61,317 nt of DNA. It comes from an uncultured virus (IMG/VR IMGVR_UViG_2061766007_000892). Lineage: Duplodnaviria; Heunggongvirae; Uroviricota; Caudoviricetes. Every line of letters starts with the position of its first letter. The first letter of the stretch is position 1. A model generated the notes under the pieces. That model saw only the letters and a program-made list of their open reading frames with translations, was not told where the DNA came from and did no database searches. The stretch lies in IMG/VR virus record IMGVR_UViG_2061766007_000892. One strand, 5' to 3'. The position numbers and the translations under genes were made by a program. Below are positions 5,549-28,475 of this stretch, piece after piece.

Positions 5549-5610
5549 TGGCAGGCGTGGCTGGATTTGAACCANNNNNNNNNNTGCCTTTACCACTTGG
5601 CTACACGCCT
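5549..5610 (-). tRNA. tRNA, anticodon in N gap (Gln-like)
   Basis: AGGCGTG/CACGCCT-G-CCA, D arm GCCAAGTGGTAAAGGC, T loop TTCAAAT. Confidence 0.8.
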
Positions 5611-6250: not shown

Positions 6251-6325
6251 TGGTGGGTGTGGCGGGGATCGAACCCACGAATCACGGATTAAAAGTCCGT
6301 TACCTTACCGCTTGGTTACACACCC
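6251..6325 (-). tRNA. tRNA-Lys(TTT)
   Basis: Cloverleaf, loop CTTTTAA, ACCA. Confidence 0.95.
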
Positions 6326-6735
6326 TAATTATCATGTTCTATATGCCACTCTCTATGGCAGTTTGCACAAAGAAGAATACATTTTTGAGTTTCAGCTTTA
6401 TAACGTTCCCACGCAGGAAGACTACCGCTGCTTAATAAACTACTTGGATCTTTGGTTTTGGTAGAAGAGTTTAAATGATGCCATTCTAATACTTCGCCAT
6501 ATTTATTATATCCGCATTTTTGACAGCCAATAATTTTCTTTTCTTCATTAGCTTTTTTGCGAAATAATTGTTTAACTAAAGTATTACGTGCTACGCGATT
6601 TTCATTAATTGTATGTCCGTTTGAGCTATCAAAAGGTGGAACACATTCATAACAAAATAAACGATTTTGTCCGCCTTGTCGGCCACGGGTATCTTGTAAT
6701 TTAAATTCTTTATTACAGAAGAAACAAGTTGGCAT
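6325..6735 (-). CDS. HNH homing endonuclease between tRNAs
   Basis: CQKCG...LEWHH...CILLCANCHREWH. Confidence 0.8.
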   Translation of the reverse strand: MPTCFFCNKEFKLQDTRGRQGGQNRLFCYECVPPFDSSNGHTINENRVARNTLVKQLFRKKANEEKKIIGCQKCGYNKYGEVLEWHHLNSSTKTKDPSSLLSSGSLPAWERYKAETQKCILLCANCHREWHIEHDN

Positions 6736-10129: not shown

Positions 10130-10729
10130 ATACCCTATTTAATAAAACCGTTGCGACCTTCGCCGTACTTGTATTATCCTTCTAACATATTCAGCTACGT
10201 TGAAGATGAAGGCTGAGCCAAAGGTAGCGACCCTTTAACTTCTTCACCCTGTCTTTCGACTACCAACGGAGAGATTGTCTACTCTCAAATTTCACTCAAA
10301 CCATTCAGCAAATTCTTCAATAATAAATCAAATATTTTCTATTTGTTCTAATACCAAGAACTTGTTGTCACTTTAAGCTACTTTTACCGCAAACCTCACT
10401 TATAGCCTATTTCTAGGTTTCAACGACAATAGCACCTTATTGGTCTTTCCTAGGTTTGATACAGTCACCAGCTAAACCCTAACTAGGATTCAGTCTACGC
10501 TTTTAACGCTTGACTTCTATTATGATGCCGTGAGGAATCGTGCTTTTGTTAGCGGATAACCAAGCGCCTACCCTTAACATTCGGAGTTTCTCCTTATCGC
10601 TAATCATTACTGATTTTGCGGCCACGATTTGGTAGTATCCCGCCAAACCGTATGGCTGTTGTTCAGGTAGCCCAAGCAGAGTGGTTAACTCTTCTTCACT
10701 TGGTTCAACCATTTTATTAAATAGGGTAT
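10130..10729 (-). ncRNA. large ornate ncRNA candidate (ROOL/GOLLD-like, ~600 nt)
   Basis: Terminal helix ATACCCTATTTAATAAAA/TTTTATTAAATAGGGTAT, many internal hairpins, own promoter, inside tRNA array. Confidence 0.65.
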
Positions 10730-11357: not shown

Positions 11358-11434
11358 TGGTGGGGAAGGAGAGAGTCGAACTCTCAAAACCTGCGTTCTA
11401 AGCGCAGTACCTATGCCAATTCGGTTACAACCCC
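11358..11434 (-). tRNA. tRNA-Leu(TAG), short variable arm, two U-U pairs in acceptor stem
   Basis: GGGGTTG/CTTCCCC-A-CCA; CTGCG-CTTAGAA-CGCAG. Confidence 0.85.
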
Positions 11435-11543: not shown

Positions 11544-11740
11544 ATATTTTTCTTTTGAATTACATCAACGATTGGAACCCATTCTCCGCACCCTTCACAT
11601 AACCAAGGTTCTTTAGATTCAATAATTACTTCATCATCTTCTACTAGGCCAAATAGTTTTAANNNNNNNNNNNNNNNNNNNNNNNNNNNNNNNNNNNNNN
11701 NNNNNNNNNNNNNNNNNNNNNNNNNNNNNNNNNNNNNNNN

Positions 11741-12324
11741 TGATTAATCAAATTATAAGCTCGCGCATAATTCGCTCCACGAGCAGTTAATCCTAATTTT
11801 AATAATGCTTGCCGCACATTAGGGGTAGATTTTAATGCTTCTATCATTTCTTCATCAGAAATTATTTCTGTTTGTTTATGAGAAGCAGACATATTTTTAC
11901 CTCTAAAATTATTTGTAAGTGCGTGACAATTACAACACAGTATTTGTAAATTATCTAATGCATTGTTTAAATGGTCTCCATCAATATGGTGAATTTCTAA
12001 TGGAATTGGTTGATTATCCCATTTTTCTAAACCACATTTTTCACATTTTCTTCCCCTTAGATTAATTAAAGCATCAATCGCATTTGCTGGTTTGATATTT
12101 TTCCCATATTGGAAACGAGAATAATCAAAATTATTCTTATTCCATCCTTGGCCTAAAAAATGAGAAGTATCAAAATTTTTTAATTCTAACATTTCTTTTA
12201 TAATTCTAGGCCCACTTCCACCATCTGGTTTATAACCAATCTTTTCAGTTAATTCGCGAATACTTCGGCTTTCTTTAACTAACTGTTCTAATTGCTCGTC
12301 AGTAAATTTTTCCCATTTTTTCAT
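11741..12324 (-). CDS. HNH endonuclease (3' end in gap)
   Basis: CEKCG...LEIHHIDGDHLNNALDNLQILCCNCH. Confidence 0.9.
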
Positions 12325-12406: not shown

Positions 12407-12483
12407 TGGTCGCGCACCTCAGATTTGAACTGAGATTGAACGCATTTTGAGTGCGCTTCCGTTGCCAATTAGGATAGTGCGCG
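12407..12483 (-). tRNA. tRNA-Leu(CAA), short variable arm
   Basis: GCGCA-CTCAAAA-TGCGT; CGCGCAC/GTGCGCG-ACCA. Confidence 0.88.
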
Positions 12484-12484
12484 A

Positions 12485-12610
12485 TGGTGCCGGCGAGTGG
12501 ATTCGAACCACCACTGAACAGATTTTAATGGTGGGCGATACGAGTGCTGCCCTCGCATAATGTCACTGGACATCGCTCGTCTGTTGCCTCTGCCGTTGGG
12601 CTACGCCGGC
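12485..12610 (-). tRNA. tRNA-Leu(TAA) interrupted by a 50-nt insert between C32 and U33
   Basis: Removing 12529-12578 gives a perfect 76-nt cloverleaf with ACAGA-CTTAAAA-TCTGT. Confidence 0.88.
12529..12578 (-). ncRNA. nested mini-tRNA (acceptor + T arm + ACCA) acting as intron
   Basis: GAGCGAT/ATCGCCC-ACCA; T arm GCGAG-GGCAGCA-CTCGT; small GTC-CAGT-GAC hairpin. Confidence 0.8.
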
Positions 12611-13031
12611 ATAAATGGCGATTTTTATCGTTGTTCGCCACAACCGTAGGCCATATGTCCTACTTCTAGGTGGACCAGGGTATTTCTACCAGCCCAATGT
12701 AAGTTTTCTTTTCTGGTTTGCGGTTACACTTACAACCCACAACAAGCTCCATTATCTACTCCATACCAGAAGAATAGTAATTTCATCGCTTATGCCGCGC
12801 ATCTTGTGCAGGGCTGCCGAATACGCTTTCACGTATTCTAAAACTCCTTGTACACTTGGTACATGAGATAGCGGTGCCGGCATTCTATTGGCCGCAATTT
12901 GTCTGCTTATACCGGCTAGTTNNNNNNNNNNNNNNNNNNNNNNNNNTCCAAGAAGAAGAAAATACAGTACGAGAAATCTTACGCACAATTATCATCCTTT
13001 CCTTGTTTCTATAACTATTATATCATAATTT

Positions 13032-16910: not shown

Positions 16911-17128
16911 GTATTTTCATTTATGATTTCTAGAAGTTCTTCATCAGAAAGGACATCAAAACATTCATATATCTTTGCTTCAATTACATTGTCCTTTCCA
17001 AAATAATCATAAAGACGGTCTACATGATTGCCAATGGTGCCTTGAATAGATACAAGACCACGTTCATGCTTGCGCTCGTCAGTATCTTCGTCCCAATAAT
17101 CAATTTCATATCTTACCATATTATACAA
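16907..17128 (-). CDS. hypothetical protein
   Basis: 73-aa ORF coupled to RNA ligase. Confidence 0.6.
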   Translation of the reverse strand: MYNMVRYEIDYWDEDTDERKHERGLVSIQGTIGNHVDRLYDYFGKDNVIEAKIYECFDVLSDEELLEIINENT

Positions 17129-17750
17129 GCTCCTTCATATCTTCCCACTTGATTTTAACAATTACACGCTCACCACAGCGATTGCGCAATTCAATCATAG
17201 GACGACAAACGATGCCTTCCATTTCACGCTCTTCTTCTGCGATTACAGAATTGGGGTGGGTTTTTACATACTCTTCCGCGGCATATAGACTGCCAGTGCC
17301 AACAATAGGAACGGCTTTAATTCCAAACATCTTGGCAGTTTCCTCTACCCATTCGCGCGCCTGATAGTTATCACCAATAAGCACATCAAAGAGGATAAAA
17401 TCTACGCCATTGGAAATATACTTTCCGCCACCCTTCTGAATCTTGCGGCCATAACCTTCACCGAAAAGAATAACTTCTTTCTCACCGAAAGCCTGCTCAA
17501 AAATCTGAGCGTTAGTTTCACCGCCAAACAACTCGTTCAAACGAGTAACAAGTTCTGCGGGAATAGCGGCATTATCGGTGCGGCCGCCAAAGGTTACAGT
17601 ATGGCCATCCCAACATACACGGATATTGGTGCCATCAACCTTTTCAGTCCAAATCCAGTTATTATCGCTGAGATATTCTACAGTCGGGTCACGGAAAATA
17701 CCGGGANNNNNNNNNNNNNNNNNNNNNNNNNNNNNNNNNNNNNNNNNNAT
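17121..17750 (-). CDS. ATP-dependent RNA ligase (Rnl2-like adenylyltransferase domain)
   Basis: Frame extends upstream of ORF-track start: WTEKVDGTNIR (motif I), LFGEGYG (III), FILFDV (IIIa), EGIVCRP (IV), VKIK (V); start next to gap after GAAAGGA. Confidence 0.85.
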   Translation of the reverse strand, partial: XXXXXXXXXXXXXXXPGIFRDPTVEYLSDNNWIWTEKVDGTNIRVCWDGHTVTFGGRTDNAAIPAELVTRLNELFGGETNAQIFEQAFGEKEVILFGEGYGRKIQKGGGKYISNGVDFILFDVLIGDNYQAREWVEETAKMFGIKAVPIVGTGSLYAAEEYVKTHPNSVIAEEEREMEGIVCRPMIELRNRCGERVIVKIKWEDMKELV

Positions 17751-17778
17751 ATTTTATTCCTTTCTACTTACTATAATA

Positions 17779-17807
17779 ATTATATCAAAAATTATATGGT
17801 AAGTCAA
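17779..17807 (-). promoter_or_regulatory. sigma-A promoter for RNA ligase
   Basis: TTGACT-17-TATAAT. Confidence 0.8.
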
Positions 17808-17815
17808 ATATTTTA

Positions 17816-17974
17816 TCAATCTCCATAAGTACAATGATAACCAGAAAAATATGGGCATATTTTACAATGAAATTCAAACCAAGTATCTGCTTGCTCTCTT
17901 GACCACTCACCGCTTATTTCTTTTCGCCACATATCTTCATATCCATAACCGCAGTCTTCCCATACTTTTACCAT
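17816..17974 (-). CDS. small hypothetical protein
   Basis: MVKVWEDCG..., AGGAG RBS. Confidence 0.5.
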   Translation of the reverse strand: MVKVWEDCGYGYEDMWRKEISGEWSREQADTWFEFHCKICPYFSGYHCTYGD

Positions 17975-17975
17975 A

Positions 17976-18317
17976 CTAAATCTCCTTATATCCATAATGA
18001 GTAAGAAGTTGCCGCATATTTTCACGGCCGACTGGATTCATTGTATGAAGATGGAAACCTACAAGAGGAATATGATTTTCTACGATATACTTACAAATAT
18101 CATAACCAGATGGAGCAAGAGTGTCATCCATTTCATTACCTTCACCCAAATCGTGGTCAAGGTCTATAATTACATTGTTTATATCAGCCACACCCAACAT
18201 ATCAATGGTTTGCTGATAATCGCGGCAAATATAAGGAAGCCAATCATGACCAGCAAGATTTCGCTGATACCAAGTATCATCGTCACGAATATCATCTACA
18301 TAAATATAATAATTCAT
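17976..18317 (-). CDS. cyclic-phosphate-processing receiver-like (cREC) domain protein
   Basis: YVDDIR, IDLDHDLG, SGYDICKYI, HTMNPVGRENM. Confidence 0.75.
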   Translation of the reverse strand: MNYYIYVDDIRDDDTWYQRNLAGHDWLPYICRDYQQTIDMLGVADINNVIIDLDHDLGEGNEMDDTLAPSGYDICKYIVENHIPLVGFHLHTMNPVGRENMRQLLTHYGYKEI

Positions 18318-18520
18318 ATATCTATTCCAAACCAACTTTCTTCGCGCAGATAAGGACAGTTTTCAATATCACATTTTGGGACTTCAGGATTCATACGGCG
18401 CTTCTTCATGTCTGTTTCTTTACTTTTATAAAGTCTACATAGCCACCCATATTCGCAGCTATGATAGGAGAATAGACACTCACTTTTTTCTTTAGGTAAA
18501 CTCTCAACTATAATTCTCAT
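18314..18520 (-). CDS. hypothetical protein
   Basis: ORF with AGGAG RBS. Confidence 0.6.
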   Translation of the reverse strand: MRIIVESLPKEKSECLFSYHSCEYGWLCRLYKSKETDMKKRRMNPEVPKCDIENCPYLREESWFGIDI

Positions 18521-18531
18521 ATTTACTCCTT

Positions 18532-18789
18532 TTAAAATGCTATAATAAATTCTTNNNNNNNNNNNNNNNNNNNNNNNNNNNNNNNNNNNNNNNNNAATTC
18601 TTGATTGTCAGGAATATAAATGTGAACATAATCTCCTTCTCCATCAAAATCAATTCTTATGGCATCTAGCATTTCAATGCCATCTTTTTCTGGATTAGTA
18701 GAACCTGCTGCGATACAACATTCAATACAAGTGGGAATGCCTTCTAACACTGGTACCATACGTCCAATATCACCAAAGTACTTTGCCAT
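18532..18789 (-). CDS. hypothetical protein
   Basis: ORF with own promoter and RBS. Confidence 0.55.
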   Translation of the reverse strand: MAKYFGDIGRMVPVLEGIPTCIECCIAAGSTNPEKDGIEMLDAIRIDFDGEGDYVHIYIPDNQEXXXXXXXXXXXXXXXEFIIAF

Positions 18790-18866
18790 AATTTTATTTC
18801 CTTTCCTTTTCTATAAATATTATACTACAAATTTCATTTTTAGTCAAGAAAAAAGAAGATGAATTT

Positions 18867-19778
18867 TCATTCATCTTCTTCTTTCACTAAATATTCATCA
18901 CTAAATAACATTTCAAGAGTAATATTATCACGTTCCCAATATGGAATGCGAACGAGAGGAATGTTGTGAGAGAGGGCGTATTGATTTTTTTCTTTATCTG
19001 TATAAAGTTGTTGTTTGTATTTCTCTTCAGTGTTCCAACCACTTGTAAAATAATAGTGTTGTTCTCCGTCAAACTCAATTAAGCGAATTATATTATTATC
19101 TTTGTTTAATATAGCAAAATCATATTTATAATTTTTGTTATTTATATTTACTGAATANNNNNNNNNNNNNNNNNNNNNNNNTAAATTAATGTTCATATTG
19201 CCTATAGATCTAATACAACCACAAGATTTAGTATTTCCATTTATAAGATGGCTTCCTTCTATATCACATTCATTGCCGCAATCACACTTACAATGCCACA
19301 TAGAATGACCTCTAGAATCATTTTCAATACGATATAATACTATTAATTTATTAAAACGTTTTCCTTCTAATTCTAATGGCGTAATATTATATTTTTTAAT
19401 ATGCTTTGTTAATAAACATCCACAAGATTTAACTTGTCCTCGTTGTAAATCAATTCCTCTCACACTCGTAGTATTACCACATTCACATTGACAAATCCAA
19501 TAATTATTTTTTCTAATATTATCTTTTTCTAAAACTGTAAGCTTATTAAATTTTTGGCCCGTTAAATCTTTAATATTACTTTGGGATGCTCGCTCTTTTT
19601 GATAGCATCCACAAGATTTAGTTCGGCCATTTCTTAAATGTTCACCTTTTATAATACATGTGTTTCCACATTCGCAAATACAGGGCCAATACCAACTTTT
19701 ATTTCGTTTTTCTGGAACCGCATTTTCTAGAACAGTTAATCTATTCCATTTGGTTCCACGCATATCAATTCCTTTCAT
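18867..19778 (-). CDS. homing-type endonuclease: three G.KFN.LTV/W.C.C.CG/SCGC repeats plus Vsr/DUF559-like nuclease
   Basis: Repeats followed by YDFA...IEFDGEQH...LVRIPYW. Confidence 0.8.
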   Translation of the reverse strand: MKGIDMRGTKWNRLTVLENAVPEKRNKSWYWPCICECGNTCIIKGEHLRNGRTKSCGCYQKERASQSNIKDLTGQKFNKLTVLEKDNIRKNNYWICQCECGNTTSVRGIDLQRGQVKSCGCLLTKHIKKYNITPLELEGKRFNKLIVLYRIENDSRGHSMWHCKCDCGNECDIEGSHLINGNTKSCGCIRSIGNMNINLXXXXXXXXYSVNINNKNYKYDFAILNKDNNIIRLIEFDGEQHYYFTSGWNTEEKYKQQLYTDKEKNQYALSHNIPLVRIPYWERDNITLEMLFSDEYLVKEEDE

Positions 19779-19813
19779 TTTATCACCCTAAAAAGTGAGA
19801 TGAATTAATCATC

Positions 19814-21331
19814 TCACTTAATATTCTTATATCTCTCACTATTTAATTTATCCATCATAAGTGAGTATCCCGATTTTCCAGACATGACCATTTCAAAGAT
19901 TACTGGAGAACACCCAGATACATTTGTAACGTCAGGACCCACATCTAGAATAGTGGAATTTTTAGCATTTACGTTCCAGAAAATTAAGGAAGGCATTTTA
20001 TAACCATTCTGTGCGAACTTTTCTCGCATTTTATCCATAAACGTAAAAGTATTACCATTATGAGAATAATAGCCCTGTGCTGCATCCACTTGCATATCTG
20101 AAATTACCACAATACTTTCTGGCATATCTGTCTGAGTAAGATGGTAATTACGTGCAGTTCTCAAGACTAATTCAAATACGTCTTGAAAATTGGTATTCTC
20201 GCAAAGATTCGTCTTTACGATACGATCAACCTTATCGCAGAAATCTACTCCATGAGTCTCAATAAACTTCGCCGTGCGGCTGAAGCTGATATAAGAATTC
20301 GCGAAAGGCCCTTTATTACGCTCTGCGGCATAAAGAGCAAGAGAAACTGCGACATCAATGGGAGCAACGCTACCAGCGCCTGAACACATACTTCCGCTTG
20401 TATCGGCGACAACAAGGGCATTTAGGGACATGCCATGGAAGTAATCAGTTAGATTCTCCCAATACTTGTTAATCATCAGACGGTCGGTGTTGTCAAGGGC
20501 GACATTACTGCCACGGCCATACCAGCTATAGTCTGAGCCCATAAGCTTAATGGCCTTAGCAACCACATCATAAGGATATAGTGCGGCTGCATTAACCTTG
20601 GTAGAGGTATTCTTAGCAAACGCTTCATACTTCGCCTTGATTAGATCACGGCGAGCAAAGGCGTTCTTATAAATCAGGCCAGCACGAGAAGGAATCTTGT
20701 CAAATTCAATCTCATTCCACCGATTTGCAGACATAAGACGCTCTAGCACACGAATACGCTCACGAAGGTTAGAAAGCAGTACACGGTACTGACGAGAAGT
20801 TAGGCCCATGGTGTGGGCAGTTAGACGTCCATAACGCTTAGTCTTGGCAGAAGAAGCGTTCTCGGAAGCCGCCCACTTACCGGCAAGGGAAATAGCACCC
20901 TTGGTCTTGTAATCAAGGGCAAGCTGCTTGCCAAGAGCATAGAGAGCCTCATGCTCGCAGGAAGTCCCTACGAGAGCGTATAGGTCATCCCAGCGGCCAT
21001 ACTCGGCAATCTGGTCAAGATTGCGCAGTACGGCATTGCGGTCATAATCCGCAAGCCAATGCAGACAAGTGCGGAAAAAACGACGCTCGCCCTGTCCGCC
21101 GCGAATGTCACGAATATAGAATAGGCACTTTAGGGCATACATAGGACTCTCCTGATATGCCTCCTTGAATAGAAGCACGCAGTCGCTCTCGGTGCGCTGA
21201 CGATAAGCCGCACCGAAAGAGAATAGGTCGTATAGCTTAGAGCTAGTCGTGGTGCGCGCGACAGCACCATTCTCGGTGGTCTTGTAGGTGTTCTGAGAAG
21301 CCATAGCATTGTAAAGACGATTCATAGACAT
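19814..21331 (-). CDS. TROVE-like/vWA protein (DUF2828, Ro60-related)
   Basis: TENGA, RDIRGGQGER, EYGRWDDL, LAGKW, MIDAS DTSGSM, ISDMQ, FWNVN, VSGCSP. Confidence 0.85.
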   Translation of the reverse strand: MSMNRLYNAMASQNTYKTTENGAVARTTTSSKLYDLFSFGAAYRQRTESDCVLLFKEAYQESPMYALKCLFYIRDIRGGQGERRFFRTCLHWLADYDRNAVLRNLDQIAEYGRWDDLYALVGTSCEHEALYALGKQLALDYKTKGAISLAGKWAASENASSAKTKRYGRLTAHTMGLTSRQYRVLLSNLRERIRVLERLMSANRWNEIEFDKIPSRAGLIYKNAFARRDLIKAKYEAFAKNTSTKVNAAALYPYDVVAKAIKLMGSDYSWYGRGSNVALDNTDRLMINKYWENLTDYFHGMSLNALVVADTSGSMCSGAGSVAPIDVAVSLALYAAERNKGPFANSYISFSRTAKFIETHGVDFCDKVDRIVKTNLCENTNFQDVFELVLRTARNYHLTQTDMPESIVVISDMQVDAAQGYYSHNGNTFTFMDKMREKFAQNGYKMPSLIFWNVNAKNSTILDVGPDVTNVSGCSPVIFEMVMSGKSGYSLMMDKLNSERYKNIK

Positions 21332-21395
21332 AATTTATTTTCTCCTTTTCATTTGGTCAGCCCTGGACTAGGGCTCGTTTCTTTCTTACAATATT

Positions 21396-21424
21396 ATTAT
21401 AGCAGAATTTTGAGTAAAAGTCAA
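21396..21424 (-). promoter_or_regulatory. sigma-A promoter for TROVE-like gene
   Basis: TTGACT-17-TATAAT. Confidence 0.8.
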
Positions 21425-21425
21425 A

Positions 21426-21623
21426 TTATTTGTGATAGAATTTCCACATTCGTTTCTTTAAATGATTTAATTCACGCGAGGTAGCCAAATTTACAATTTC
21501 TGATTTCACTATTGTATCTGATGATATGATAGGAGCAGAATTTATCATTTCTTTCAACTCTTCATTAGTAATATCAGGAAGTTCTTCTGTCTTTTTCTTT
21601 CCAAAAATAAACGGTAGTCCCAT
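21426..21623 (-). CDS. hypothetical protein
   Basis: 65-aa ORF with RBS. Confidence 0.55.
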   Translation of the reverse strand: MGLPFIFGKKKTEELPDITNEELKEMINSAPIISSDTIVKSEIVNLATSRELNHLKKRMWKFYHK

Positions 21624-21632
21624 ATTTTCTCC

Positions 21633-22176
21633 TTATAGCATAGCAATACATTCGTTTGCTTTTGCTTCAATATCTGAAATAATTTCATCAAAGGATACTG
21701 GCGCATTGTTATGTGCGTCAAGTGCTACATTATACATAAAAGGAATGTCTTGATAAAACTTATTTTTTGAATGAGTATGGCCATGAAGATTTATTAGATG
21801 TTGCTTCAAAGGTGCCATATTTTCAAGATAGGAAGTCATAGTTGGATAGTGGGAAAGATAGAAATTAAAACCATTTATCTTTTGAACCGCGGCCCAACTA
21901 GTATGAAAATCACCACTTAAAGGAATCATATTAGTATTCTTATATAATTCACAACGGCTATCAGTGCAATGATTTCCGCGAATATAATAAATTTTTCCTT
22001 GGAGTTGATTTAATAATTTTATACCGCCTTCATTATTGTTTAACATTAAATCTCCTAATAGATAAATAGTGTCGGTATTTTTAATAGATTTATTCCAATT
22101 TTGTATGATAATNNNNNNNNNNNNNNNNNNNNNNNNNNNNNNNNNNNNNNNNNNNNNNNNNNNNCCAAATTGTCAT
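21633..22176 (-). CDS. calcineurin-like metallophosphoesterase (gap in N-terminus)
   Basis: MTIW..(gap)..QNWNKSI..IYLLGDL, RGNH, LSHYP, LHGHTH. Confidence 0.8.
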
Positions 22177-22807
22177 CAGGTTCTATCTCCTTCCAATGAT
22201 AGTTATATGCTTTTTCTGTTATTCCATTTAAGCATCTTCTAATATTACCATTAGTTTTTTTATTAAAATATTTGTCAATATCACGCATTCTTTTAAAAAT
22301 TAAATTTTTCTCCACTAATAAAATCCAATTAGTATGCTTTGTTCTCGTTTTACTCTTTTTTAATTTAGAATAATCTATATTTTTAGAAGTTAATGCTGTA
22401 TAAACTACTTGGTCATAGATTTTAAAATATGTACATGTATCTTTTATTGAGTTATTATGAGAAAGAAAATAATCAACAATTATATCATAATCATATTTTT
22501 GATGGCCAAAGCCTCCCAATGAGGCATTATACCCATTCTTATAACTATCATAATATTCAATCCAATATTTTTCTCTTTCATTTAATAGTTCATTAGGACA
22601 TTCTTCTATTAAAGTAATAATAAAATTATCTTTACCATATAATCTTATAGCATTATGTAATGGTAAATGATAGTCTTTATGAAATTGTGTAGTTGCTGCT
22701 CTTACATGATCGTCCCAACGAGTACTAATTGCTCTAATTGTTTGACCAATATAAACAGTTCCATTTATTTTATTTTCAACTTTGTAAATTCTACCCATAA
22801 TAATCAC
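22165..22807 (-). CDS. GIY-YIG homing endonuclease (stop in gap)
   Basis: GRIYKVEN..VYIGQT..RW..H, LNEREKYWI, GYN. Confidence 0.88.
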
Positions 22808-24507: not shown

Positions 24508-25482
24508 TTAATTCGTAGTTTCAGTAGTTTCGCCCATATTTAAGATGGGAATAGTGGAACTGCCGCCAACAAATTGTGGAAGTTCTCCATTCCAACGCTG
24601 GACTTGACGATAATTTACAAGTTCTTCAGTTAGAGACTTATTAATTTTTTCATTGGCTTCTGCTTCTGCGGCAGCCTTAACTTGTGTAGAATATGCGTCT
24701 GCATCTGCTTGCACCTTAGCTACTTCTGCCGCGGCTTCTGCTTCAATCTTCTTACGCTTTGCAGCCTGTTCTGCTTCCATAGTAGCTTGTTCCTGCTGGG
24801 TCTGAGCACGCTGCTTTTCTTGTGTAGCAACTTGCTTGGCTTCTACGGCATTAGTAAAAGCGTCTGTAAAATCAATATTTTCAATAGATACAGAAATGAT
24901 ATTAATGCCTTGTGGTTCCAAATCTCCCTTTAATGAATCATAAATTTCATTTGATAGTCGTTGTCTATGAGAAATTAGACCTTCTGCTGTATATTTAGCA
25001 AAGGTAGCCTTTAGTACTTCTTGTGCACGAGGAGCGATTAAAATACTATCGTACTTTGTGCCGACTTCCTTATAAAGGCGCATAGCAGTGGTCTTATCAA
25101 TAGAATAATTAATAGAACCTGTTACTTGTACTTCCTGAATATCCGCAGAAAATGCTTCCATTTGGAACTGAGCACGTTGTTCACGATTATCCATTTCAAT
25201 TACTCGTACAAAGGGTGACTTAAAATGTAATCCCGCTTCATAAGTATAGTCTTGAACTTGATTAAATTTAGTTACAATTCCAGTATAACCTGTATGGACT
25301 GTTGCTATACAAGACGAGGCCACACATAAAACTGCAAGTATTACACTAATAATGCGTAGCAATGTTCGTTGTGAAGCGTGACTTACTTTGTCACCGTTTC
25401 TCTTTGCTCTGTCCTTGAATACTGTTGAAGCTACGACAAAACCAACTACAAGAACAACTAAACCAAAAAAAATACCTACCAT
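24508..25482 (-). CDS. SPFH/prohibitin family membrane protein
   Basis: Two TM helices, GLHFKSPF, AVEAKQVA, coiled coil, WNGELP. Confidence 0.9.
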   Translation of the reverse strand: MVGIFFGLVVLVVGFVVASTVFKDRAKRNGDKVSHASQRTLLRIISVILAVLCVASSCIATVHTGYTGIVTKFNQVQDYTYEAGLHFKSPFVRVIEMDNREQRAQFQMEAFSADIQEVQVTGSINYSIDKTTAMRLYKEVGTKYDSILIAPRAQEVLKATFAKYTAEGLISHRQRLSNEIYDSLKGDLEPQGINIISVSIENIDFTDAFTNAVEAKQVATQEKQRAQTQQEQATMEAEQAAKRKKIEAEAAAEVAKVQADADAYSTQVKAAAEAEANEKINKSLTEELVNYRQVQRWNGELPQFVGGSSTIPILNMGETTETTN

Positions 25483-25511
25483 TTTTCTTTTCTCCTTTAA
25501 CTCATTTTTAT

Positions 25512-25587
25512 TGGAGCGTCCTAGCGGTGCTGCCCCGCTTAACAATGGTTTTGCAGACCACGCCGTTTGCTGATTCGGTAAGGACGC
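25512..25587 (-). tRNA. tRNA-Cys(GCA), atypical T loop GGCAGCA
   Basis: GTGGT-CTGCAAA-ACCAT; AGCGG-GGCAGCA-CCGCT; U73-CCA. Confidence 0.88.
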
Positions 25588-26529: not shown

Positions 26530-27343
26530 TGGCAGGAGTTGAAGGATTTGAACCTTCACCAACGGTTTCCATCTAAAATGCTTTAAAGTAAATTCCATTC
26601 CTTATCTGTATATTTTTTTATTTCTCCTGTTTTACGAGGAAGATTATATTTATCACACCATTTACGAACGGCATTATCACTAACACCAAATTGTTTTCCA
26701 ATTTGAGTAAATGGAATTTCTCTAATTAATTGTTTCAACACAAAACGTTCCGGAATATTTTTACTTTTTTCTTTATTTCTACAAGATAAACATTTTATTG
26801 CTCCATAAGAAATTTCACATCCGCAATCTTCACAGTAATATTTACCTGTATGACTAGAATTATATAATTCTTCATCTGCTAATCGTTCATATCCACTTAA
26901 AATATTGGAAATTAAATAAGTATCATCATCAAATTTTATTGTTTTAATTAAAGACGTTTCATCTACTGGTATTAAATATACTTTATCTTTCCATACTGTA
27001 GCGAAATAATCAATTTCTTCGTTGGTATATTTATGTTTAGCTTTTGTAGAACTTCTTACATTTTGTGTAGTGCAAGGAAAAGAAAAAGATGAATTAGAAT
27101 TACTAATAGATTTTTTAATTTGTATACGAAGTAGTTCTCTTCCTGTATCTACAATTAAATCGTACTTTGATGCATTATATGAAGGAATAGAAATATCAAA
27201 TCCATATCGTAGTAATTCTTCTTGTACTTTTAATTCAATAATTTGCCCTTTAATTAAATTCTCATTAAGCATGTTTCACCATTATGGAATTAAATTAAAG
27301 TTTTCAGATGGAGACCAGTATGCTGCCATTACACCAAACTCCT
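26530..27343 (-). tRNA. tRNA-Trp(CCA) split by a 740-nt intron (26569-27308) after the anticodon
   Basis: 5' exon AGGAGTT-TG-GTGTAATGGCAGCAT-ACTGGT-CTCCA; 3' exon AAACCGT-TGGT-GAAGG-TTCAAAT-CCTTC-AACTCCT-GCCA. Confidence 0.88.
26583..27272 (-). CDS. intron-encoded PD-(D/E)XK homing endonuclease (I-Ssp6803I-like) with C-terminal Zn ribbon/HTH
   Basis: KGQIIELKV, YDLIVD..RIQIKK, Y...IDYFA; CEDCG..CLSC; IGKQFGVSDNAVRKWC. Confidence 0.85.
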   Translation of the reverse strand: MLNENLIKGQIIELKVQEELLRYGFDISIPSYNASKYDLIVDTGRELLRIQIKKSISNSNSSFSFPCTTQNVRSSTKAKHKYTNEEIDYFATVWKDKVYLIPVDETSLIKTIKFDDDTYLISNILSGYERLADEELYNSSHTGKYYCEDCGCEISYGAIKCLSCRNKEKSKNIPERFVLKQLIREIPFTQIGKQFGVSDNAVRKWCDKYNLPRKTGEIKKYTDKEWNLL

Positions 27344-28398: not shown

Positions 28399-28475
28399 TG
28401 GTATCCCACCCGAGATTTGAACTCGGAGAAACTAGAACCTTAATCTAGCGTGTATGCCAATTCCACCAGTGGGAC
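28399..28475 (-). tRNA. tRNA-Leu(AAG), short variable arm
   Basis: CTAGA-TTAAGGT-TCTAG; ACCA. Confidence 0.88.

Follow-up and report, generated by a model that had tools for sequence, protein, structure and literature searches.

Can a tRNA gene that has been split by a homing endonuclease gene still yield a tRNA, when the insert carries no recognizable ribozyme? This question is raised by a 61,317 nucleotide (nt) stretch of DNA from an uncultured virus of the class Caudoviricetes (IMG/VR record IMGVR_UViG_2061766007_000892), in the following called the window. A tRNA-Trp gene with the anticodon CCA is encoded on its minus strand at 27343..26530 and is interrupted by a 740 nt insert, most of which is an open reading frame (ORF) for a PD-(D/E)XK nuclease. 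An earlier note, made from the sequence alone, described the insert as a mobile tRNA intron spliced by proteins. As set out below, the insert belongs to a widespread mobile element whose ends form, together with the anticodon stem, one long predicted helix. We tentatively suggest that the element is removed from the tRNA as a protein-dependent intron, a call somewhat short of even.

The split gene and its mobile element

Every part of the split gene that the earlier note had described was found in place. The features are:

27343..27309, minus strand: tRNA-Trp exon 1, nucleotides 1-36, with the anticodon CCA at its 3' end (CUCCA); intron-less alleles (L058, L062, L108) establish where the junction lies
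27308..26569, minus strand: mobile insert of 740 nt between tRNA nucleotides 36 and 37
27308..27298, minus strand: near-invariant 5' end of the insert, +1 to +11, the 5' strand of the proximal helix; +1 to +7 pair with -4 to -10 (alignment and pair counts)
27297..27273, minus strand: variable 5' untranslated region (UTR); the covarying distal helix has its 5' strand in the first c. 17 nt, and the start codon lies about 10 nt further on
27272..26583, minus strand: homing endonuclease ORF, 229 amino acids (aa)
26613..26584, minus strand: last ORF codons and stop codon, the 3' strand of the distal helix
26583..26569, minus strand: invariant 3' end of the insert, -15 to -1; the final UGG pairs with the anticodon CCA (alignment and pair counts)
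26568..26530, minus strand: tRNA-Trp exon 2, nucleotides 37-76, with G73 and an encoded CCA

The non-coding part of the insert thus amounts to 50 nt, and the coordinates bear out the 36 nt upstream and 14 nt downstream of the ORF that had been counted earlier.

Scans guided by the protein detected full-length loci, five in viral and 19 in metagenome contigs. In the window and in 23 of these loci the ORF lies between the same two junctions; at the remaining one, L025, only the 3' junction was seen, and it was excluded from later counts. Collapsing of duplicates reduced the 24 inserts to 19 distinct ones, and dropping the near-duplicates L004, L005 and L008 left a set of 16. This set was used for the analyses of synonymous variation, alignment, covariation, pair counts, exon and ORF identity, and exon integrity.

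Judged from the window sequence alone, the identity of the tRNA hinges on where the boundaries are placed. With default settings ARAGORN reported 20 tRNAs in the window and none for Trp. With the intron option it detected the split gene, placed both boundaries one base to the left and called it Arg(CCG). We consider the Arg(CCG) reading wrong, since intron-less alleles fix the junction at A36|A37. Such alleles, which the earlier note had proposed to look for in relatives, were found at three loci: L062 and L108 have the exons of the intron-bearing L001 without the insert, and in L058 the allele of the window itself occurs uninterrupted, with the same tRNA-Thr downstream. They place the insert unambiguously between A36 and A37 and so settle the exon junction CUCCA|AA as it had been drawn. 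The joined exons shown were called tRNA-Trp(cca) in silico, except those of L013, which were called tRNA-Stop(tta), and G73 is present in all 16 distinct intron-bearing alleles. It had also been claimed that no other tRNA-Trp can be seen in the window. This holds for the 20 ARAGORN tRNAs and for the Rfam tRNA matches, in a window of which 2,569 bases are masked. A 59-nt tRNA-like stretch at 5552-5610 (minus strand, 34.7 bits) has an A1-U72 pair, G73 and CCA as in tRNA-Trp, and only 10 masked bases in place of the anticodon arm and variable region.

A degenerate exon-1 pattern occurred at 104 places in viral contigs. By inspection, the tRNA-Trp gene is uninterrupted at 103 of these and carries the insert at one, L089, which is on the contig of L001; the exact exon-2 pattern had no match in viral contigs. 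Deposited phage records gave tRNA-sized matches only, and none of the 97 pattern matches from a genome-contig scan with the protein profile was confirmed. Exon identity (mean 66%) and ORF identity (mean 78%) are uncorrelated (r = 0.06 over 120 pairs); loci L011 and L012, for example, have ORFs that are 92% identical, in contrast to 74% for the exons. It follows that the element passes between tRNA-Trp genes of widely differing sequence, as expected of a homing element. Intron-less alleles whose exons are the same or nearly so point the same way, and the mobility that the earlier note had ascribed to the insert is well supported. By these sequence comparisons, it is an element with a homing endonuclease gene of the I-Ssp6803I family, inserted between nucleotides 36 and 37 of phage tRNA-Trp(CCA), that spreads horizontally. 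Its presence or absence at one exact site, and this spread, are indirect evidence that the nuclease may cut intron-less alleles where the insert goes in.

The nuclease had been assigned to the I-Ssp6803I type, and both the family and the fold agree with this. Residues 8-107 match Pfam PF11645 (PDDEXK_5) with 65.7 bits against a cut-off of 26.1 (E 5.6e-18). In a structure model built on 16 homologues (mean pLDDT 76), the top four Foldseek matches are chains of 2OST, which is I-Ssp6803I (E 1.8e-5, target TM 0.58); the top matches are DNA enzymes, namely 2OST, SPARDA nucleases and Hjc. By sequence only, the link to I-Ssp6803I is weak (phmmer E 0.027), and a PDB profile search with the family alignment gave no match at E<=0.01. 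Residues D38, D42, E46, Q51 and K53 are invariant in the alignment of 16 homologues and may include the acidic and lysine residues of the active site. C-terminal to the nuclease are a Cys4 zinc-ribbon-like segment at about aa 147-164 and a helix-turn-helix (HTH) at aa 175-210, with weaker Pfam matches to HTH and zinc-ribbon families. This part matches a PHROG annotated as HNH endonuclease, and the same module stands behind an HNH domain (L011) and a GIY-YIG domain (L006) in related phages. We therefore predict that it is a shared binding module.

A collection of proteins contained 414 homologues of the ORF at E<=1e-3. The homologues come from records of the human gut, from runs on bovine and sheep gut and from further metagenomes. 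Among the 120 listed, most have a length of 229-231 aa and share 70-98% of residues with the query. In eight of the 19 distinct ORFs in-frame TAG codons occur at conserved glutamines (L002, L003-L005, L010, L011, L014 and L015 are listed), and suppressor tRNAs with the anticodon CUA lie nearby (L001:3153-3241, L133:16875-16948). The TAG-bearing relatives appear to decode TAG as glutamine, which suggests that TAG-recoded phages, too, harbour and translate the element. In the copy of the window no stop codon interrupts the frame.

Two further split tRNA genes with related modules were observed. At L011:224-1034 a tRNA is split in the anticodon loop by an insert of c. 735 nt that encodes the HNH protein with the shared C-terminal module. 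ARAGORN calls this tRNA His(GUG); G73 and an alternative junction would fit Asn(GUU). Towards its 3' end the insert contains an additional 3' half of a tRNA, consisting of T-arm, acceptor strand and GCCA. At L006:1600-2300 the GIY-YIG ORF with the module lies between a tRNA 5' half and a 3' half made up of T-arm and acceptor strand, and it seems to extend into the 3' strand of the anticodon stem.

The end helix and the search for a ribozyme

In the minimum-energy fold of the 814-nt precursor the two ends of the insert pair together and continue the anticodon stem. The long end helix with a single C-A mismatch, seen earlier by inspection, proved real: in the window it has 29 pairs at -31.2 kcal/mol, and none of 1000 shuffles was as low. 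Duplex folding of the insert ends of four copies gave 29-34 pairs at -30 to -38 kcal/mol, with 0/1000 shuffles reaching the observed value in each.

The helix has a frozen proximal and a variable distal part. In the proximal part, U33 pairs with A37, the anticodon forms three pairs with the last three bases of the insert, and +1 to +7 pair with -4 to -10; a small internal loop and three more pairs follow. The pairing of the last three insert bases with the anticodon is exact in 16 of 16 copies, in L013 by wobble. Of the last 14 columns of the insert 13 are invariant in the 16 distinct copies and the remaining one is the same in 15, whereas third codon positions of the ORF are only 65% identical. 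The 19-pair helix 3 (the anticodon stem and 14 proximal pairs) is paired in 96.4% of cells over the same copies. Proximal changes are wobble-compatible (U-G/C-G at +2, G-U/A-U at +4) except in L017.

In the distal part, the variable 5' UTR pairs with the last ORF codons and the stop codon. The sequences differ by lineage and complementarity is kept: cognate duplexes have a mean of -12.8 kcal/mol versus -8.8 kcal/mol for non-cognate ones (permutation p ~5e-5). The earlier note had asked for compensatory changes in this boundary helix; the distal part covaries, and the changes in the proximal part are wobble-compatible. Several pairs are G-U on the transcribed strand and would be A-C on the other. 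These pairs fit the transcribed strand only, which speaks for a structure of the RNA and not of the DNA. Based on folding and covariation, the ends of the insert and the anticodon stem form a single predicted helix of 29-34 base pairs (bp) that is under selection at the RNA level.

The position of the junctions in this helix restricts how they could be cut. The 5' junction lies between the pairs A36-U(-3) and U(+1)-A(-4), and the 3' junction between C34-G(-1) and U33-A37. The two junctions are thus 3 bp apart on opposite strands, leaving a 3-nt 3' stagger across C34-G, C35-G and A36-U. The helix from 27:43 to +7:-10 comprises 17 positions and is symmetric about C35. An archaeal-type bulge-helix-bulge, with two 3-nt bulges and a 4-bp helix between them, is not formed, since both junctions lie in a continuous helix with neither the bulges nor the 4-bp central helix. 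The earlier note had likened the helix to eukaryal pre-tRNA introns rather than to a bulge-helix-bulge. The latter part stands; the eukaryal likeness is loose, as the insert lies at 36/37 and not at 37/38 and its junctions are not in a bulge or loop.

Other ways to cut or excise the insert were considered. The long stem resembles that of intervening sequences removed by RNase III. In a passage of PMC4357697, RNase III and Mini-III are said to leave 2-nt 3' overhangs. RNase III could not cut at both junctions, since its stagger is 2 nt and the junctions are 3 bp apart. Excision at the DNA level via terminal inverted repeats was rejected by reasoning, because the two 3-nt overhangs would be identical and not complementary. 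RNase P was considered for both junctions, as each lies 5' of a 7-position helix with a 3-nt tail (CCA on the exon side); this was left as speculation because the helix continues past both sites.

Searches with the Rfam group I, group II and self-cleaving families gave no match in the 881 nt around the insert or in the 4 kb around it (E<=10), nor in the whole 61 kb window (E<=1), and a search with group I and II models had indeed been expected to be blank. As to the hallmarks of a group I intron, there is no P3-P9 core by covariance model, no constrained RNA of about 200 nt or more, and the base before the 5' junction is A36 in 16 of 16 copies, not the U of group I introns. Of these hallmarks, the terminal G is present and invariant. 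Group II hallmarks (domain V/VI, a reverse-transcriptase ORF) are likewise lacking, the ORF being a PD-(D/E)XK nuclease. The earlier note had named a group I core overlapping the ORF as one finding that would overturn its reading. Synonymous differences among residue-identical codon pairs are 0.31 overall and 0.21-0.44 in each 15-codon window along all 229 codons; there is no long dip in synonymous variation, and no core-sized stretch of the ORF is constrained beyond coding. In view of the blank model searches, the mere 50 nt of non-coding sequence and the even spread of synonymous differences, a hidden ribozyme core is unlikely.

Spliced intron or selfish insert

We suggest the following mechanism. 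In brief, the helix would hold the two junctions 3 bp apart on opposite strands, and a protein endonuclease, which may be a host enzyme, a phage enzyme or the element's own nuclease, would cut both. An RNA ligase, for which the window's Rnl-type ligase with its end-healing partners is a candidate, would reseal the nicked anticodon loop, and the product would be a restored tRNA-Trp, the sole one in the tRNA set of the phage. The helix would melt whenever a ribosome reaches the ORF's stop codon and terminates there, which would make splicing and nuclease translation mutually exclusive.

Four lines of evidence support splicing to the point where we lean towards it without holding it probable: the frozen junction core with its exact anticodon pairing, the apparent selection on the helix as RNA, the lack of a spare tRNA-Trp, and the putative sealing enzymes encoded in the window. 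The need for the tRNA was assessed in G002, the 168 kb contig of L005, which is 85% complete by the record's estimate. Infernal gave 27 tRNA matches there, all within 4-22 kb. ARAGORN named 26 intact tRNAs, covering 18 amino acids plus a CUA suppressor, and no tRNA-Trp is present apart from the split gene. The candidate repair genes of the window and the nuclease genes around them are:

17121..17706, minus strand: ATP-dependent RNA ligase (PF09414), N-terminally truncated by masked bases, in which a KxDG motif is present; candidate sealing enzyme
17976..18335, minus strand: cREC_REC receiver domain, named for cyclic-phosphate processing (PF20274, E 1.4e-17); candidate end-healing component
19814..22046, minus strand: DUF2828/DUF7788 'RNA-binding protein' (phrog_850) and phosphoesterase (phrog_547)
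6325-6735, 11659-12324, 18867-19778 and 22055-22807, all minus strand: four further genes resembling homing endonucleases, three of the HNH and one of the GIY-YIG type, located between tRNA genes and RNA-repair genes

The phage RNA ligase that the earlier note had invoked is thus present as a gene with the KxDG motif, a candidate for the sealing step. Judged by their domains, the genes at 17121-22046 (minus strand) probably form an RNA heal-and-seal cassette of Rnl-type ligase, cREC_REC, DUF2828/DUF7788 and phosphoesterase. Two of the four extra homing-endonuclease-like genes sit inside it, and a Band_7 protein is encoded in the window at 24508-25545.

The full version of this proposal is a ribozyme-free, protein-spliced mobile intron in a bacterial virus, whose frozen 17-position helix offers a 3-nt 3' stagger to an undescribed endonuclease and whose exons are resealed by an RNA-repair ligase. 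We regard it as possible, and as a more tentative statement than splicing as such.

Several observations weigh against splicing. We know of no endonuclease that cuts a plain RNA helix with a 3-nt stagger. In the contigs of five intron-bearing relatives (53-87% complete), an RNA_ligase match over the cut-off was found in only one, with sub-threshold matches in frames of 458-493 aa in four. Neither EndA (PF01974) nor RtcB was found in any of the five, and EndA is not among the Pfam matches of the window. No ORF-less mini-intron with the same 3' end was seen: 77 pattern matches in viral contigs contained six real elements, all of full length. Related phages have other nuclease genes inside tRNA genes (L006, L011) where the end helix is lacking; in the split tRNA of L011, which bears the HNH gene, a comparably long helix was looked for and not found. 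The contigs of four metatranscriptome runs, whose small word shares say nothing on habitat, cover pieces of the ORF and both unspliced junctions, and no spliced RNA was seen among them. One 1,587-nt contig with joined flanks was considered as a spliced product and rejected, as 15 letters differ from the window's anticodon arm; because the anticodon stem differs, it represents an intron-less relative with the same gene order. The metatranscriptome contigs do not bear on splicing either way.

The state of the exons can be read in two ways. At most one stem mismatch in 21 pairs is found in 14 of the 16 intron-bearing alleles, and by their predicted pairing most split exons are as sound as uninterrupted genes. 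The mean number of mismatches is slightly higher in the 16 intron-bearing alleles (0.75) than in 76 distinct intron-less ones (0.41; one-sided p = 0.051), which counts against splicing. The anticodon loop of L013 (1432-2243) is changed at three positions, all C-to-U, and reads UUA, which is of the ochre-suppressor type; three stem mismatches, two of them in the acceptor, are present, and the terminal GG of the insert still wobble-pairs with the changed anticodon bases. L013 is either a decaying gene or a recruited suppressor. L020 has two mismatches in the acceptor stem, and both L013 and L020 may be decaying. It should be noted that intact exons do not prove selection after insertion, because the element moves horizontally; judged from the sequences, recent homing into intact genes can explain them as well.

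Several of these observations speak for an insert that is never spliced. The endonuclease gene would then have broken a dispensable phage tRNA-Trp, the host tRNA-Trp would suffice, and the helix would serve the mRNA of the nuclease. In one version the mRNA would be held inside the tRNA body like an engineered 'tRNA scaffold', with both ends protected and translation tuned; in another the helix would be a processing site that frees the mRNA, in the way that RNase III acts on bacterial rRNA intervening sequences, with no re-ligation. We consider such a selfish insert quite possible, and only slightly less likely than splicing. A spliced product and a matching endonuclease, EndA or RtcB were not found in the material described above, the ligase is not general among carriers, and no ORF-less derivative was found. 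Horizontal movement means that intact exons need no selection after insertion, and the slight excess of stem mismatches, together with the three loop changes and two acceptor mismatches of L013, points the same way. The tRNA region of the window is moreover crowded with further homing endonuclease genes. What a selfish insert leaves unexplained is why the proximal 11 nt and 15 nt are frozen beside a freely covarying distal helix, why the last three bases of the insert pair with the anticodon in every one of the 16 copies, including by wobble in L013, and why a near-complete tRNA set has the split gene as its only Trp member. The processing version also meets the difficulty that an RNase III cut cannot fall on both junctions.

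Within the reading as a protein-dependent intron, a special case would have the element's own PD-(D/E)XK nuclease cut the RNA helix, with the same 3-nt 3' stagger as is expected on intron-less DNA. Bonocora and Shub reportedly found in 2001 that I-Ssp6803I cuts DNA at both edges of the anticodon triplet, so that 3-nt 3' overhangs remain. The RNA junctions, too, flank the three anticodon pairs with a 3-nt 3' stagger. The helix of 17 positions is symmetric about C35, and target sizes quoted for I-Ssp6803I are 17 bp and 23 bp (a table in PMC3424549, and a passage in PMC3384342). PMC3424549 also assigns the splicing endonuclease of archaea to the PD-(D/E)XK superfamily, and the ORF is strongly conserved in hundreds of copies. 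The geometry, however, follows partly from the position of the insert, the intron half of the helix has by eye no sequence likeness to the DNA half-site, no member of the family is known to cut RNA, and the top Foldseek matches are DNA enzymes. We consider this special case, whose likelihood is already contained in that of the protein-dependent intron, improbable.

A cryptic self-splicing or self-cleaving RNA, with a core that overlaps the ORF or is of a kind not yet in Rfam, could draw on the invariant terminal G, as in group I introns, and on the related I-Ssp6803I residing in a group I intron of a tRNA gene (an entry in the reference list of PMC3984707), but is very improbable given the blank Rfam searches at permissive thresholds, the A in place of U before the 5' junction, the uniform synonymous variation along 229 codons, and a non-coding part of 50 nt in which the middle of the 5' part varies freely.

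The tRNA array of the window has further features, among them the following RNAs:

10135-10727, minus strand: ROOL RNA (333.8 bits)
12696-12791, minus strand: drum RNA (54.1 bits)
12649-12696, minus strand: DUF3800-XI-like RNA, just under the gathering score

ROOL as a trans-acting partner was found in 0/5 intron-bearing and 0/5 other contigs, a weak negative as control genomes gave no match either. A second interrupted tRNA lies at 12488-12610 (minus strand; anticodon UAA), with a 49-nt ORF-less insert between nucleotides 32 and 33 that is absent from 12 of 12 homologues found in viral contigs. By eye this insert is like a collapsed mini-tRNA: it has a stem of 7 pairs, a hairpin resembling a T-arm, and ACCA at its end. 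The three tRNAs at 11358-11434, 12407-12483 and 28399-28475 (minus strand; UAG, CAA and AAG), all with anticodons for leucine, measure only 77 nt each and therefore lack the long variable arm that a bacterial tRNA-Leu should have; versions of 85 nt occur in relatives, for example L003.

Comparison with known systems

Introns that lack a ribozyme and are excised by proteins are regarded as an archaeal and eukaryal trait. An endonuclease insert that lacks a ribozyme and splits a tRNA gene of a phage was not found described in the literature searched, and a passage in a 2014 review states that all introns seen in phages were in protein-coding genes, despite the many phage tRNA genes (PMC3984707). 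The element described here is abundant and combines a nuclease family that usually resides in a group I intron with no ribozyme and a selected RNA helix that fixes the geometry of the junctions, which makes it a concrete and testable case. If it is spliced, a mobile element can trade self-splicing for the RNA repair enzymes of host or phage, phage RNA-repair cassettes gain a housekeeping role, and an RNA endonuclease activity that is not yet known is pointed to. If it is not spliced, it illustrates how a tRNA body can serve nuclease genes as a scaffold for their mRNA, and it cautions against including split phage tRNAs among the functional ones.

Among known systems the group I intron in tRNA-fMet of Synechocystis PCC 6803, which encodes I-Ssp6803I (2OST), comes closest. 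The two are alike in the nuclease family, the site in the anticodon loop, the ORF on the tRNA strand, and mobility seen as presence and absence. The insert studied here differs in that it has no group I core, has A and not U before the 5' junction, and resides in a phage tRNA-Trp. Its nuclease carries an extra zinc-ribbon/HTH module common to HNH and GIY-YIG enzymes of the same phages, and the long end helix stands in place of P1/P10.

The nearest functional analogy is provided by archaeal bulge-helix-bulge introns with homing endonuclease genes, which are processed by EndA and RtcB. They too are ribozyme-free, and the 3' part of the intron pairs with the anticodon region. If the phage insert is spliced, both would need a protein endonuclease and a ligase. 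In contrast to the archaeal introns, the insert has no 3-nt bulges and no 4-bp central helix, is located at 36/37, and comes with EndA and RtcB in none of the five relatives' contigs. Its host is bacterial, as judged by the GH25 lysozyme and peptidoglycan-binding domains of the phage.

Bacterial rRNA intervening sequences are likewise inserts in a structural RNA that are looped out by a long end stem. A tRNA cut in the anticodon loop is nonfunctional unless it is sealed. The rRNA intervening sequences are not re-ligated and have no nuclease gene, and the 2-nt stagger of RNase III, as given in PMC4357697 in the passage referred to above, does not fit the junctions of the tRNA-Trp insert.

Free-standing homing endonucleases of the T4 SegB type, and 'intron-less homing', also use the phage tRNA array as a landing ground, and the window has four more such genes. 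The element in tRNA-Trp differs from these in that its gene lies inside a tRNA gene, at a fixed nucleotide and with conserved RNA-pairing ends.

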